NCBI GenBank assembly: GCA_049517415.1
Contig: JBEKSC010000025.1
Coordinates: 1-44,167, forward strand
Direction: 5' to 3'
Origin: Candidatus Bathyarchaeia archaeon
GTDB taxonomy: Archaea > Thermoproteota > Bathyarchaeia > 40CM-2-53-6
DNA length: 44,167 nt
Shown here piece after piece: positions 37,719 to 43,808 of this stretch. Position numbers and translations under genes: made by a program. Every line of letters begins with the position of its first letter. The first letter of the stretch is position 1. The notes below the pieces were generated by a model. The model ran no database searches. It was not told where the DNA came from and saw nothing but the letters and a program-made list of their open reading frames with translations.

Positions 37719-38516
37719 TTAATGTTGTTTGATTCCTCTGGAGCTGACGTTAACTCGCAGACTGGGAAAAGCAGCTCTGCAGGCTGCGACAATGGGGGGT
37801 GTGAGTAGAACAAGAAACGGGATTTCAGAAAGGTAAGTGAATGTGGTGGCAGCGTAGATGACCGAGATCGGGAGGAGCCCTGTTCCCACAACTGCGGGCA
37901 AGGTGAACAACGAGCTGTAGGCTACAATCCCGATGCCGATGATGATGCTACCGATGCCAAGGCCAATTGACGCTGCAGCCTCGAAGTCTGCCCACTTGTT
38001 GCGAACAACGGCCAGGCCGAGGATTGCGACCACGACGACTAGTCCGACGAACGCTACAAGAACCTGAGGAGAGGCGAAAAGATTAGGCCCTGCCAGAAGG
38101 TAGATCCCGTAGGCCGCGAGGATCACTGGAATAAGCAGACTGAGGATAATCATGCCTCGTTTGGCTGAGGCAGCTCTGTTCCTGTTCGTGAGCCAACCTA
38201 TGATGAAGAATCCGAGGAAATTTGACGGGACCCCCACCAGCAAGCTCAGTAAAGCGTCGTGATGACCGTAAATGACGTCAGCGAGGAAGATCCCGATGGC
38301 CGCTCCAACACCTCCCGTCCAGGCCCCAAATAGAACGCCAAATGTTGCTGGCACGAATACCTGCGGCCAGAACCGTATTCCATAGACCGTTATGGGGAAA
38401 ACGGTCCACAGCGCTCCAATGCCAAAGTAAACGGCAGCGTTCATCGCGGTCATTATCAGTTGAAGGGACGTTGGGGACCCCTTACGGCTCAAGGTTACTC
38501 TCTTTTCACTCAACAT
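37719..38516 (-). CDS. ECF transporter S-component with internal hydrophobic insertion
   Basis: TAMNAAVY, RFWPQVFVPATFGVLFGAWTGGVGAAIGIFLAD, GVPSNF; 265 aa. Confidence 0.8.
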   Translation of the reverse strand: MLSEKRVTLSRKGSPTSLQLIMTAMNAAVYFGIGALWTVFPITVYGIRFWPQVFVPATFGVLFGAWTGGVGAAIGIFLADVIYGHHDALLSLLVGVPSNFLGFFIIGWLTNRNRAASAKRGMIILSLLIPVILAAYGIYLLAGPNLFASPQVLVAFVGLVVVVAILGLAVVRNKWADFEAAASIGLGIGSIIIGIGIVAYSSLFTLPAVVGTGLLPISVIYAATTFTYLSEIPFLVLLTPPIVAACRAAFPSLRVNVSSRGIKQH

Positions 38517-38578
38517 GGTCCGCCTATTCTAAGTTATCCTCAATGCAGTTTGGACATGCTACGCTTTGCTTAGTCCAA

Positions 38579-38591
38579 CGAAATATTAAGA
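38579..38591 (+). promoter_or_regulatory. BRE/TATA promoter of tRNA-Gln
   Basis: CGAAA-TATTAAGA ending 30 nt before the tRNA 5' end. Confidence 0.6.
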
Positions 38592-38620
38592 TAAGCCAAT
38601 CCAGCTGGGTTGCACGCGGT

Positions 38621-38781
38621 AGCCCGGTGGTGTAGTGGTCAATCCACGCACGTGGGACTATGCATAGCATTGGCGCCAGATATCGGCCAATAGAAGGCTC
38701 TGGATCCCCTCCACCAGAGGAGAGACCTGCCGACGGGAGAGATAGATGCAACCCCGAATTCGAATCTCCCCCGGGCTACCA
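38621..38781 (+). tRNA. tRNA-Gln(CUG) with four predicted introns and encoded CCA
   Basis: Exons 38621-38642, 38662-38669, 38696-38703, 38725-38739 and 38759-38781 join to the 76-nt AGCCCGGTGGTGTAGTGGTCAAGCATAGCAGGCTCTGGACCTGCCGACGGGAGTTCGAATCTCCCCCGGGCTACCA, with fully paired acceptor, D, anticodon and T stems and the archaeal Gln A1-U72 pair. Confidence 0.92.
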
Positions 38782-38949
38782 ATCATACAGTTGCAATCTC
38801 GAGTAGTCAACAAATAGAAACAGCAGACTCGAACCGGCCTTTAGGTAAATTATTCGATCTTTCTGATGAGTTCAAAAACCGCACTAGGGTTGTTCTAGGA
38901 GACTCTCGCGAGTCTAACTTATCTTGCATAACTACAGTTTGACTGTCAT

Positions 38950-40245
38950 TCACTTGTAGGTTGCCACGCCCCATGTTTCAAGGGCTCGTTGAAGTTCCTT
39001 GTGTTGGCGAGCGTAGTCTTCGAGGTTTGTTCCTTGCATAGCCACCTCGATGGCTTGCCTCAAGGCACCGGCGCCCGCTTTGCCGCCGTCTGGGTGTCCC
39101 CAGATGCCTCCTCCCGCTTGTATGATTATGTCAGCGCCTACGATTTTGACGAGGTCGGGGATTTGGCCCGGATGGAGACCACCGGAACACACCGGGAAAA
39201 CAGGTTTGACGGTGCCCCAGTTTTGGCCTAGGCTGAAATCTTTCGAATCGACGTTCTTTTGTTGCAGGTTGTCCCTGAGCGCAAGGACCTCCTCCTTGGG
39301 TGATTCGAGTTTGCCGATGACAGTTCCAATATGTAGTTGGTCTACGCCAACAAGGCGCGCCACATCCGAGAGCGCGAGCATGGACATTCCATGAAGTGGG
39401 TTCCGAGTAAAGGCCGCGTGGAAAGCTCGGTGGGCATGAATTGCGAGTTTGAGAGCCTCACATTCCTCGCGGATTGTTTGGAGGCTGCCCCATCCGCAGG
39501 TGATTATGTCCACCATCACATATTCGCCTCCCGCCTCTGCGACCGCTTTGGCTCGACTAACCATCTCCTTTGTCTCCGCGGATATGTTGATCAAGTAGCT
39601 CTTTCGTTCCCCTGTGACTTTTTCGGCCTTGTCACGCAGTCTGAAACACTCGTTCACCCTTTCCTTGAATTTGTTGAACGGTTGCGAAGTAAGGTTCTCA
39701 TCATCCTTTAGAAGGTCTACGCCCCCAACCCAAGCCTCGTATCCGGCTTTGGCATGTTCCTTTGCTGTAAGACCGACCTTGGGCTTGGGCACTGTGGCTG
39801 TGAGAGGCCGTTTCCTTACTTTGAAGAGCTTGCGGATTCCACTCAAGCCAAGCCTCGGGCCACAAAAGCTATTCAAAATCCTTCTAGGCCACCGTATACA
39901 TTCTAACCTTAGGTTCTGGACAGCTTTCATTCCGAAGACGTTGCCAGCGACGGAGCTGAGAATTTGGGGCATATTCCCATACTCGAATAGTTGAGGCGGA
40001 TAAGAGACTTTCACTAAGTTGCCGTGGATTTCGTAAGCCTTAGCCATCAATCTTCGAATCCGAGGCTTCATCGTAGTCACTTCAGTCCAAGTCCCCACGG
40101 AAGATTCTGATGCGACCCTCCCCGCAGCGTCCTCGATTGAGAATCCAGACGCTGGCTCTACCCTGAAGAGGCAAAGTAAGTCCTCCGAACTCGGATTATA
40201 CTCAGCATCAACGAATTCGTGGTACCATTCAGTCAACTTGCTCAC
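38950..40245 (-). CDS. rbcL: Form III RuBisCO large subunit
   Basis: ESSVGTW, GN, PKPKVG, DLLKDDEN, HAHRA, HIGT, GKL, SGG, GGG: complete active-site set, so not a RuBisCO-like protein. Confidence 0.96.
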   Translation of the reverse strand: MSKLTEWYHEFVDAEYNPSSEDLLCLFRVEPASGFSIEDAAGRVASESSVGTWTEVTTMKPRIRRLMAKAYEIHGNLVKVSYPPQLFEYGNMPQILSSVAGNVFGMKAVQNLRLECIRWPRRILNSFCGPRLGLSGIRKLFKVRKRPLTATVPKPKVGLTAKEHAKAGYEAWVGGVDLLKDDENLTSQPFNKFKERVNECFRLRDKAEKVTGERKSYLINISAETKEMVSRAKAVAEAGGEYVMVDIITCGWGSLQTIREECEALKLAIHAHRAFHAAFTRNPLHGMSMLALSDVARLVGVDQLHIGTVIGKLESPKEEVLALRDNLQQKNVDSKDFSLGQNWGTVKPVFPVCSGGLHPGQIPDLVKIVGADIIIQAGGGIWGHPDGGKAGAGALRQAIEVAMQGTNLEDYARQHKELQRALETWGVATYK

Positions 40246-41787: not shown

Positions 41788-42213
41788 TTAATCAGCCATG
41801 ATTCTCATATCGTCAAGATGAAACGTCGAGCGGTCTTCACTGAGGATCCATGCTGCCACGCCCTTTGGTTCTCCGTTTTGCACGGATACAACCAAATAGG
41901 TATACCATGGCCACGTGTTCTCTAGGTCGACCTGCGAAGGCTGAGGAGGCGCGTCAGGGTGTGAGTGATAGATCCCTATCAAATCGAGGTTAGCCCTTCG
42001 TGCTTCTTCGTCCGCCCTTACGAGTTCCATCGGATCAATGTTGAATCGATTTTTGCGTGAACTTCGATTGGTGTTCTGCGCCGACAGCGCGCGTACTATT
42101 ATTCGAGGGTCGGAATCCCTGCCCAAAAGAAAGCCGCAGCACTCCTCTGGATATGTCGAACGAGCATGGTTCATTATGAATTGCAGTTGGTCCCGTGTTA
42201 TGTATACGACCAT
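41788..42213 (-). CDS. JAB/MPN+ (M67) metalloprotease
   Basis: PEECCGFL and YHSHPDAPPQPSQVD JAMM motif. Confidence 0.93.
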   Translation of the reverse strand: MVVYITRDQLQFIMNHARSTYPEECCGFLLGRDSDPRIIVRALSAQNTNRSSRKNRFNIDPMELVRADEEARRANLDLIGIYHSHPDAPPQPSQVDLENTWPWYTYLVVSVQNGEPKGVAAWILSEDRSTFHLDDMRIMAD

Positions 42214-42357: not shown

Positions 42358-42534
42358 ATGCTCGAAGGCTATGCAAAAATGATCCTACCAACCCGCAGCG
42401 ATCGAAGTAAAACAGGGATTCTGTACATCCCAGCCGATATTGTCAAAGATTCATCATTCCCGTTCAGCCCAGATCAAGAAGTCGTAGTGCGGATCGATGG
42501 CAATCGCTTGGTTGTAGAGGAGTCGAGAGCATGA
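42358..42534 (+). CDS. Small AbrB/MazE-like protein, paralog 2, coupled to crenactin
   Basis: LYIPADIVKDSSFPFSPDQEVVVRIDGNRLVVE; stop overlaps the crenactin start (ATGA). Confidence 0.75.
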   Translation: MLEGYAKMILPTRSDRSKTGILYIPADIVKDSSFPFSPDQEVVVRIDGNRLVVEESRA

Positions 42535-43808
42535 CCGCAGAAACAGACTATCGAAGTCAGTACACTTTCGCTATGGACTTCGGGACAAGTGACTTCAAGT
42601 ATGGTCCCATAACATGCGGTGAAACGCCGAGAATTGTCAACAACCGAGGTTATTTTCCAGACAAGAACTCCGTTGTGTACAAGGCGTTTGAATCGACAGA
42701 TGAAGTCATTGTAGGGGAAGACGTTCCGCTCTACCTACAATCTGCTGAAGACCTATCAAGTCGCTTGGTTTACCCCATGCGCAACGGCATGATCGACAAG
42801 GCCGATGACACTGCATGGCAAGTGGTAAGCGCCCTAACCAACCTCGGGCTGAATACCTTCAAACCTGAACCGAACAATGGGTTTCAAGGATACTACGTCG
42901 TAGCATCGCTCTCGTCAGTATCACCACGTTACATGTACGAAAGGCTCTTGGACCTCTTCAAGCAAAACAACGCTAACGGAAATGTCAAGGCAATAACGGT
43001 CATACCTCAGCCATTCGCCGTAGCAATAGGTCATGGTGTGACGACTTGCGTCGTGATAGAATCAGGCCATGGCAATAGCCAAATCTGCCCTATCTCTAAG
43101 TACCCCATCCGCGCAGCGCAAGTTGTTCTCAACCGAGGCGGTGGCGACGCAAACGCAATTACGTCTGAGATCTTGAAAGACACGGGATACGGTGATCTTG
43201 CAAATGAAGAAGCGTTCGTTCGTAAAGTCAAGGAAAACATAGGACTTGTACCAGCAGACCTCGACGCTGCCCTAGACGAAGCGAAGAGGTCACCACGGAG
43301 ATTCAGGGCCAAGTATAAAGTGCCAGGAACGAGGGTCGAGATTGACTTAGAAAAGGACTCGTGGAGTAGGTTCCTGATCGGCGAATACGTGTTTAACCCG
43401 AACCACGAAGTTTTCGAGAGCTACTTCGGGCGAGGGATGCCGAGACCTAGGGACGTTAAGATGGGCGATACCACCTTCCGCGGGATGCTGGACTTCGGCG
43501 ATGCCATTGTTACTTCAGTAGAGCGATGCCCAGTTGAACTCCAACCGATGCTCTACCGTGAGGTGCTGTTGTCCGGCGGGAACTTCAGTTGGACCGTCCC
43601 TGAACGACTCGAAGATATCGCCGTCGACGCCCCCACAAAAATCAAGTCGCTACTTCGACAGAAGGGAATCAAGAATGTCTCTGTCAAGATGACAAAATCA
43701 CCTCAATTTTCTGTCTGGCACGGCTGCCTGATCTATGGCTTCGCTGTCCCAGATGACTACGAGTGGGATTGGCAACGCCTCGAGGGGTGGATGAAGCTCA
43801 GTGGCTAA
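42531..43808 (+). CDS. Crenactin (archaeal actin)
   Basis: DFGTSxxKYGPIT, PQPFAVAI, ESGHGN, LNRGGxxANAITxEILKD, RFLIGE, LSGGNFSW, PQFSVW, EGW, colinear with Pyrobaculum crenactin as recalled. Confidence 0.95.
   Translation: MTAETDYRSQYTFAMDFGTSDFKYGPITCGETPRIVNNRGYFPDKNSVVYKAFESTDEVIVGEDVPLYLQSAEDLSSRLVYPMRNGMIDKADDTAWQVVSALTNLGLNTFKPEPNNGFQGYYVVASLSSVSPRYMYERLLDLFKQNNANGNVKAITVIPQPFAVAIGHGVTTCVVIESGHGNSQICPISKYPIRAAQVVLNRGGGDANAITSEILKDTGYGDLANEEAFVRKVKENIGLVPADLDAALDEAKRSPRRFRAKYKVPGTRVEIDLEKDSWSRFLIGEYVFNPNHEVFESYFGRGMPRPRDVKMGDTTFRGMLDFGDAIVTSVERCPVELQPMLYREVLLSGGNFSWTVPERLEDIAVDAPTKIKSLLRQKGIKNVSVKMTKSPQFSVWHGCLIYGFAVPDDYEWDWQRLEGWMKLSG

Follow-up and report, generated by a model that had tools for sequence, protein, structure and literature searches.

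A four-intron tRNA-Gln(CUG) gene in a Bathyarchaeia genome with heavily fragmented tRNA genes

A tRNA-Gln(CUG) gene interrupted by four introns was identified in a 44,167-nt stretch of DNA from a Candidatus Bathyarchaeia archaeon (contig JBEKSC010000025.1, here called the window). We estimate at roughly 0.9 the probability that this is a functional, single-copy gene which is transcribed from its own promoter and spliced by EndA and RtcB, a reading that is drawn from sequence. Removal of the four inserts leaves a canonical cloverleaf with the conserved bases, as is expected of an archaeal multi-intron gene of the bulge-helix-bulge (BHB) type, and ARAGORN recognized this spliced form as a complete 76-nt tRNA-Gln(CUG) with an encoded CCA. 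The five exons are colinear within 161 nt behind a single upstream promoter and the gene is thus not of the split or permuted kind. The upstream motif listed in Table 1 is presumably a BRE/TATA element, in keeping with the general picture of archaeal promoters. The GGT at the end of the leader may be able to pair with A73-C74-C75 and would then lengthen the acceptor stem in the precursor.

Table 1. Features of the tRNA-Gln(CUG) locus (window positions) and other tRNA genes of the genome with four or five introns
Feature	Coordinates	Strand	Basis
BRE/TATA-like archaeal promoter element (presumed)	38579..38590	+	motif 41-43 nt upstream of tRNA start, 17/17 genus copies
Leader end GGT	38618..38620	+	GGT in 12/17, NGT in 17/17 genus copies
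Exon 1, tRNA positions 1-21, 22 nt	38621..38642	+	ARAGORN, parser, relatives
Intron 1 at 21/22, 19 nt, HBh' type	38643..38661	+	central 4/4, inner 4, outer 0
Exon 2, positions 22-29, 8 nt	38662..38669	+	identical in 17/17 genus copies
Intron 2 at 29/30, 26 nt	38670..38695	+	weak central helix 2/4, inner 4, outer 2
GCCAGA loop motif of intron 2	38675..38680	+	invariant in 17/17 genus copies
Exon 3, positions 30-37, anticodon CUG, 8 nt	38696..38703	+	ARAGORN, parser, relatives
Intron 3 at canonical 37/38, 21 nt, hBHBh' type	38704..38724	+	central 4/4, inner 2, outer 3
Exon 4, positions 38-53, 15 nt	38725..38739	+	ARAGORN, parser
Intron 4 at 53/54, 19 nt, hBH type	38740..38758	+	central 4/4, outer 3, inner 1
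Exon 5, positions 54-76, encoded CCA, 23 nt	38759..38781	+	ARAGORN, parser
Lys(UUU), four introns	C2:31013-31198		census
Leu(CAG), four introns	C4:118814-119004		census
Met(CAU), four introns	C19:42131-42273		census
Pro(CGG), four introns	C19:52410-52580		census
Pro(GGG), four introns	C6:94952-95127		census
Tyr(GUA), four introns	C2:37345-37542		census
Glu(CUC), four introns	near C11:14022		re-parse
Trp(CCA), five introns (10/11, 28/29, 37/38, 45/46, 59/60)	G000:C24:5196-5420	-	L097/L101

The locus was also read with an intron-aware cloverleaf parser, which uses base frequencies from the general tRNA consensus and rewards BHB shape with a bonus. From 320 nt around the locus, with no coordinates supplied, the parser placed introns at the same four positions with a score of 52.2, against a maximum of 13.4 in 100 dinucleotide shuffles of the locus. 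The coordinates and lengths of the original prediction, in which 161 nt collapse to a paired 76-nt cloverleaf once four segments are taken out, were thereby reproduced exactly by ARAGORN and by the blind parser. BHB geometry had been predicted for each intron and it holds for introns 1, 3 and 4, which have a 4-bp central helix, 3-nt bulges and a flanking helix; in intron 2 only two of the four central pairs are formed, and the prediction had itself listed two Watson-Crick pairs there. Its helices for intron 3 (central CTCT/GGAG, outer AGG/CCT) and intron 4 (central CGGG/CCCG, outer CGA/TCG) agree in pair number with the parser, as do the full central helix and the missing outer helix of intron 1, but the inner helix of intron 1 is shortened from 5 to 4 bp, since 5 bp would leave a loop of 2 nt. 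Intron 2 can be shifted leftward by a single base, and intron 3 by a single base in either direction, with the same product, so the 29/30 and 37/38 borders rest on BHB geometry. The 37/38 border rests on its canonical position as well, because no Gln(CUG) relative free of this intron was seen among those parsed, except by construction of the searches.

The expectation that standard annotation would miss the gene was borne out. In its unspliced form, ARAGORN reported no gene and Rfam gave no match at the gathering score in the whole window, and with one intron allowed ARAGORN miscalled or failed to call the other intron subsets. The locus is no assembly error, since single contigs of three public DNA runs (X17, X19 and X20, not flagged as a possible source) span positions 38471-38782; a fourth run (X18) covers them in pieces only. 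The contamination estimate of the genome is 6.86%.

Strong conservation of the exons was found among the relatives. A full-length copy is present in 16 of 22 genomes of the same genus, four genomes (76-93% complete) gave no match and two a partial one only. The parser assigns four introns to each of the 17 genus copies, counting the present one: 13 have them at the same positions, three have a 59/60 intron in place of the 53/54 one and one (L008) has an odd T-loop. Mature bodies are identical in 15 of the 17 and L017 differs at three places, including the replacement of the G49-C65 pair by A-U, while the introns occur in 15, 14, 13 and 16 distinct versions (introns 1 to 4). In the four public DNA runs, all 26 variant places inside the gene fall in the introns (85 nt) and none in the exons (76 nt), with a Fisher p of 7e-9 that is to be read with non-independent sites and a mixture of strains and relatives. 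The exons are under strong purifying selection and the introns drift.

More distant homologues lack individual inserts. Intron 1 is absent, with contiguous exons, in L020, L024, L030, L066-L086, L088 and L090, and intron 4 is absent in L030 and L066-L086, and in other genera without intron 1, the T-arm intron or both the exons join exactly at the predicted borders. This presence and absence is direct for introns 1 and 4, and for intron 2 it comes by way of L022, L027 and L029, which are other Gln(CUG) or Gln(UUG) genes from the order and have no 29/30 intron. A set of 95 distinct homologues was assembled from genomes and metagenome loci (80 of at least 120 stretches) picked for having a 29/30 intron; 12 of 141 matches were left out of it (nine scored as non-tRNA, three cut short or low), and L018, L019 and L023 were missed in the first parse of relatives, L019 and L023 being parsed in the wider set. 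Seven intron sets occur in it: 29+37 (40 genes), 21+29+37+53 (32, plus L008), 21+29+37+59 (9), 29+37+53 (7), 10+29+37+53 (4), 10+29+37 (1) and 10+29+37+59 (1). Four introns are carried by 47 of the 95 and five by none. The four introns were probably gained and lost one by one, and their number would be a load typical of the lineage and no special device.

The T-arm intron lies at 53/54 (L001-L014) or 59/60 (L015-L017) within one genus, and at 59/60 also in L087 and L089, and CCCGAA lies at or close to the end of both forms. A single intron may have slid by six bases, in place of a loss and a new gain. In L008 (G013:C34, near 81685-81850) intron 4 ends in a short duplicated stretch that disturbs the T-loop; this may reflect decay of the copy, an intermediate of sliding or a fault of assembly. 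Families f55 and f59 (L130-L134, L141), which belong to another class of the phylum, have Gln(CUG) genes whose exons are almost identical to those here and whose 29/30 intron is related; the tRNA gene may have come down vertically from an old ancestor or have been transferred.

The genome is predicted to encode a two-subunit EndA of broad specificity together with the RNA ligase RtcB. It has an RtcB gene and two EndA genes (PF01974); aligned to Aeropyrum EndA alpha, the catalytic subunit keeps Y125, H133, K164, W183 and the loop residue K44, and the second gene is without the His stretch and fits the structural subunit. The loop with Lys44 has been tied to cleavage of non-canonical and relaxed motifs, and the residue roles are described in the same work (PMC3241643). 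The closest relatives of the catalytic subunit are Bathyarchaeia records, the best with 93% identity.

From these elements we infer how the precursor is transcribed and spliced. A precursor of about 170 nt would be made from the gene's own promoter, the two-subunit EndA, with its broad-specificity loop, would cut the four BHB or relaxed-BHB motifs and RtcB would ligate the five exons. Intron 1 would leave early, because its motif is the most stable and its removal adds a pair to the outer helix of intron 2, which has two pairs with intron 1 present and three once it is out, as the relatives without intron 1 show. As read from the sequence, the intron 2 motif requires G30 to be bulged and G31 and C32 to be paired to C23 and G22, and the intron 3 motif requires G30 and G31 to be paired to C40 and C39 with C32 in the central helix. 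The two motifs are mutually exclusive because both need G30, G31 and C32, and since the full anticodon stem under intron 3 forms only after intron 2 is removed, intron 2 would be cut before intron 3. Intron 4 could be removed at any time. The order 1, then 2, then 3, with 4 free, is somewhat favoured, and it is put forward as an inferred order since ViennaRNA does not show the motifs of introns 2-4 forming unaided: over all intermediates the central-helix probability is 0.69-0.94 for intron 1, 0.00 for introns 2 and 3 and at most 0.15 for intron 4. Removal of close-lying introns in order has precedents (PMC8450103, PMC3978253), and so has a 37/38 intron that leaves last, in Cyanidioschyzon merolae (PMC3728597).

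The loop of intron 2 holds the sequence CCAGA, which is the complement of U33-C34-U35-G36-G37 of its own tRNA. It could be a built-in helper strand that pairs with U33-G37, so that the weak 29/30 motif forms and is cut first; the GG upstream of it would pair with C39-C40 or with the first bases of intron 3. Both the anticodon stem and the motif at 37/38 would be blocked, and intron 2 would be cleaved before intron 3. We regard this role as rather unlikely. Within the genus, GCCAGA is constant in all copies while loop positions 12-16 vary. Of the 69 distinct introns at 29/30, whose lengths run from 20 to 42 nt, 59 have CCAGA, and it persists through introns of 22-42 nt whose stems differ. By eye five further introns carry variants that keep the pairing by G-U wobble (UCAGA in two, CCGGA in one, CUGGA in two), three of these five being in families outside the class; the motif is kept in f55 and f59, which lie outside it. 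In the first set, all 42 distinct genes that have a 29/30 intron carry CAGA; it occurs in none of the 21 introns at 21/22, in none of the 18 at 53/54 and in 13 of the 44 at 37/38. In the fold of the intron itself the motif is largely unpaired, and every one of the 95 distinct genes with a 29/30 intron has a 37/38 intron too.

Against a helper function, the motif is absent from four of the 69 introns (L019, L023, L199, L216), three of them with clearly related stems, one variant (CGAGA) breaks a pair, the relatives are not independent and the complementarity in this gene amounts to only 5 bp. The helper role is unproven, because four homologous introns are without the motif and no two-sided compensatory change was found. 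In f55 and f59 the last three motif bases can pair within the intron hairpin, with one compensatory change by eye (L134 vs L141). There is no general rule either, as 20 anticodon-stem introns of the genome have no excess complementarity to their own anticodon loops (p 0.31; mean rank 0.54). In the nested folding model the helper helix displaces the intron 2 motif, with P of 0.15 for the full precursor and of 0.63-0.88 after removal of intron 3. A Gln(UUG) gene with a 29/30 intron, which would allow covariation to be tested, was found neither in 105 genomes of the order and 401 of the phylum nor among the 80 metagenome loci; one Gln(UUG) match in the order has, by eye, its intron elsewhere and one in the phylum parses with an intron at 25/26. 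A guide RNA would have boxes C and D flanking a guide of 10-12 nt; no Rfam match was obtained in the window and by eye neither box is seen in the 69 distinct 29/30 introns listed. That the 29/30 intron is a selected antisense element, common to Bathyarchaeia and another class, which sets the cutting order or acts as a box-less guide for anticodon-loop modification, is a tentative proposal to which we give about one chance in four.

The weakness of intron 2 also bears on whether EndA removes it at all. Retention of this intron, or its removal by another route, is improbable. Its central helix has two of four pairs in six of the 17 genus copies, including this gene, which places it below the 'relaxed' class (3/4 pairs) of preprint 10.64898/2026.10.13.758758, and its predicted helix probability is 0.00-0.01. 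Homologous introns nevertheless have, in the same register, three of four pairs (11 of the 17 genus copies) or four of four (f8, f55, f59), the inner helix and the 3-nt bulge spacing are kept, and the EndA of this genome has the loop linked to relaxed-motif cleavage. Retention would, moreover, break the anticodon stem.

A decaying pseudogene or an assembly artefact, with CAG read by tRNA-Gln(UUG), is slightly more improbable still. Wobble reading of CAG by tRNA-Gln(UUG) is possible in principle, a Gln(UUG) gene with two introns does exist in the genome, and the weak intron 2 motif would fit with decay. On the other side stand the purifying selection on the exons, the conserved promoter, the independent contigs that cover the gene and, again, the many homologues with four introns. 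A second Gln(CUG) gene, which the original prediction had proposed to look for, was found neither by exon search nor in the census of the genome described below, and the codon CAG is used 8162 times in its long ORFs. A three-intron reading would merge introns 1 and 2, with exon 2 between them, into a single intron of 45 nt and use the end of intron 2 as exon. It becomes the top parse when the BHB bonus is switched off, but its D and anticodon stems contain mismatches and its merged intron has one of four central pairs. The relatives rule it out: exon 2 is invariant, it is joined directly to exon 1 where intron 1 is missing, and the bases that this reading needs at the end of intron 2 differ in most of them.

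The four-intron tRNA-Gln(CUG) gene has to be viewed within its genome. A tRNA census of 5216 windows chosen by anchors (not every base), with loci kept at a score of at least 45, gave 43 loci with 102 introns: one gene has none, eight have one, 17 two, nine three, seven four and one five. Re-parsing adds two genes, Glu(CUC) and Leu(UAG), which have four and three introns respectively; this makes 45 loci and about 2.4 introns per gene, and brings the four-intron genes to eight with tRNA-Gln(CUG) included. The gene is thus ordinary for its genome and below the maximum, given the seven other four-intron genes and the five-intron tRNA-Trp. The only intron-free gene of the census is Arg(CCG) on C29, and no Ala(GGC) gene was found in the 5216 windows. 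For tRNA-Trp, relatives were gathered by DNA search, a loose Trp pattern having been dropped for its many chance matches; five introns are present in all 11 complete genus copies parsed and in four of seven well-scoring copies of other families (L117-L120), two of which have a 17/18 intron in place of the 10/11 one. Over the whole genome ARAGORN called 28 tRNA genes, several of them misassigned, and Rfam RF00005 gave 17 loci over the cut-off. Copying of introns from other tRNA genes, as in the transposition known from Thermoproteales, was set aside: no near-identical introns are shared, no copies of the four Gln(CUG) introns within 3-4 mismatches were found in other tRNA genes of the genome, and the best global alignment scores against 98 other parsed introns are only 2-5.

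Some further loci were noted in the course of the census. By eye, the 37/38 intron of tRNA-Trp resembles a box C/D guide. In Ser(CGA), what was called as one of the introns probably represents the variable arm. tRNA-Leu(UAG) (G000:C5:2259-2452, plus strand, L100) has an unusually long, G+C-rich intron of 63 nt at 59/60. An Arg-type locus (G000:C2:49683-49827, minus strand, L098), probably CCU, gave no clear parse; by eye, a fit may require three or more introns and C33.

The tRNA region is flanked in the window by a type III RuBisCO gene (38950-40245, minus strand, over the cut-off) and a JAB/desampylase-like gene (41788-42213, minus strand, under the cut-off), and no link of these to the tRNA is implied. 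A crenactin-like gene (42531-43808, plus strand; NF053560, E 2e-161, 537.6 bits, under the cut-off of 630) and a pantoate kinase-like gene are also among the neighbours. Between the tRNA and the convergent RuBisCO gene lies a hairpin (38900-38944), a 44-nt stretch that is single-copy in the genome and matches high-depth contigs with other flanks in the four runs. A sigma-70 promoter scan was discarded as not applicable to archaea.

This study adds to the Asgard families another archaeal lineage, a Bathyarchaeia group, in which nearly all tRNA genes are fragmented, and common tools miss such genes outright. Of most note are the unreported lineage-wide intron load in this group, the series of intron states and the candidate motif in intron 2. 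The homologues carry from two to four introns, in seven position sets or more; with the switch between 53/54 and 59/60 within one genus among them, they form a natural series which can serve as material for how tRNA introns arrive and move. The gene offers a compact test substrate for ordered splicing, because its 8-nt exons make adjacent splice motifs compete for the same bases. If the helper role were true, a 26-nt tRNA intron would be a folding switch and not neutral cargo, and if the motif is functional, short tRNA introns would act in their own processing.

Among known systems, the intron of archaeal pre-tRNA-Trp carries a box C/D guide directed at the anticodon arm of the same tRNA. Intron 2 is similar in that part of it is complementary to the anticodon region of the tRNA it interrupts, and it differs in its length of 26 nt, in showing no box C/D by eye and in offering only 5 bp. 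For a complementary intron element of this sort no paper was found in the literature searched, and none is mentioned in the passages of the Asgard preprint that the analysis covered. In Cyanidioschyzon merolae tRNA-Ile(UAU), which likewise has several BHB introns, RT-PCR shows that the 37/38 intron is out last (PMC3728597); that system differs in its eukaryotic enzyme, in having three introns with none in the anticodon stem, and in motifs that do not compete.

The Thermoproteales share with the present genome short BHB, hBH or HBh' introns at 37/38 and at non-canonical sites, a two-subunit EndA and close introns that need ordered removal, and 29/30 and 53/54 are among the positions listed for them (PMC4090602). 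They differ in having three introns against four here and 1.54 per gene against about 2.4 (Pyrobaculum calidifontis has 71 introns in 46 tRNA genes; PMC8450103, PMC4090602), as well as in their transposed intron families, whereas close intron copies are not found in other tRNA genes here. The original prediction held that known archaeal tRNAs have at most three introns, in line with the 'up to three' of the tRNAscan-SE 2.0 paper (PMC8450103, 2021), but its suggestion of an undescribed degree of fragmentation did not survive, since an Asgard tRNA gene with up to five introns is reported (10.64898/2026.10.13.758758) and the tRNA-Trp of this genome has five. In the literature searched, no other case of four or five introns in an archaeal tRNA was found beyond that preprint, the per-gene table of PMC11291895, which lies outside this scope, perhaps listing some; nor was a study of four-intron tRNAs or heavy tRNA fragmentation in Bathyarchaeia found in it, subscription papers being mostly outside its scope.

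A further close likeness is to the Asgard tRNAs. Introns were reported in 92-95% of the tRNA genes of three Asgard genomes (Valentin-Alvarado 2024, PMC11291895), and the preprint (bioRxiv, October 2026) gives 2.2 introns per gene for Asgard families and up to five in one gene, none shown spliced. In both lineages nearly all tRNA genes are interrupted, with 2.2-2.4 introns per gene and up to five, the genes are missed by annotators, gains appear repeated and separate with few introns common to different tRNA types, and splicing is a prediction. The lineage is different, Bathyarchaeia being a word absent from the main text of the preprint. The tRNA-Gln(CUG) gene belongs to the known archaeal multi-intron BHB tRNA genes; its four introns exceed the long-standing three and stay below the five of the Asgard families and of tRNA-Trp in its own genome, which makes it an extreme case and no record.
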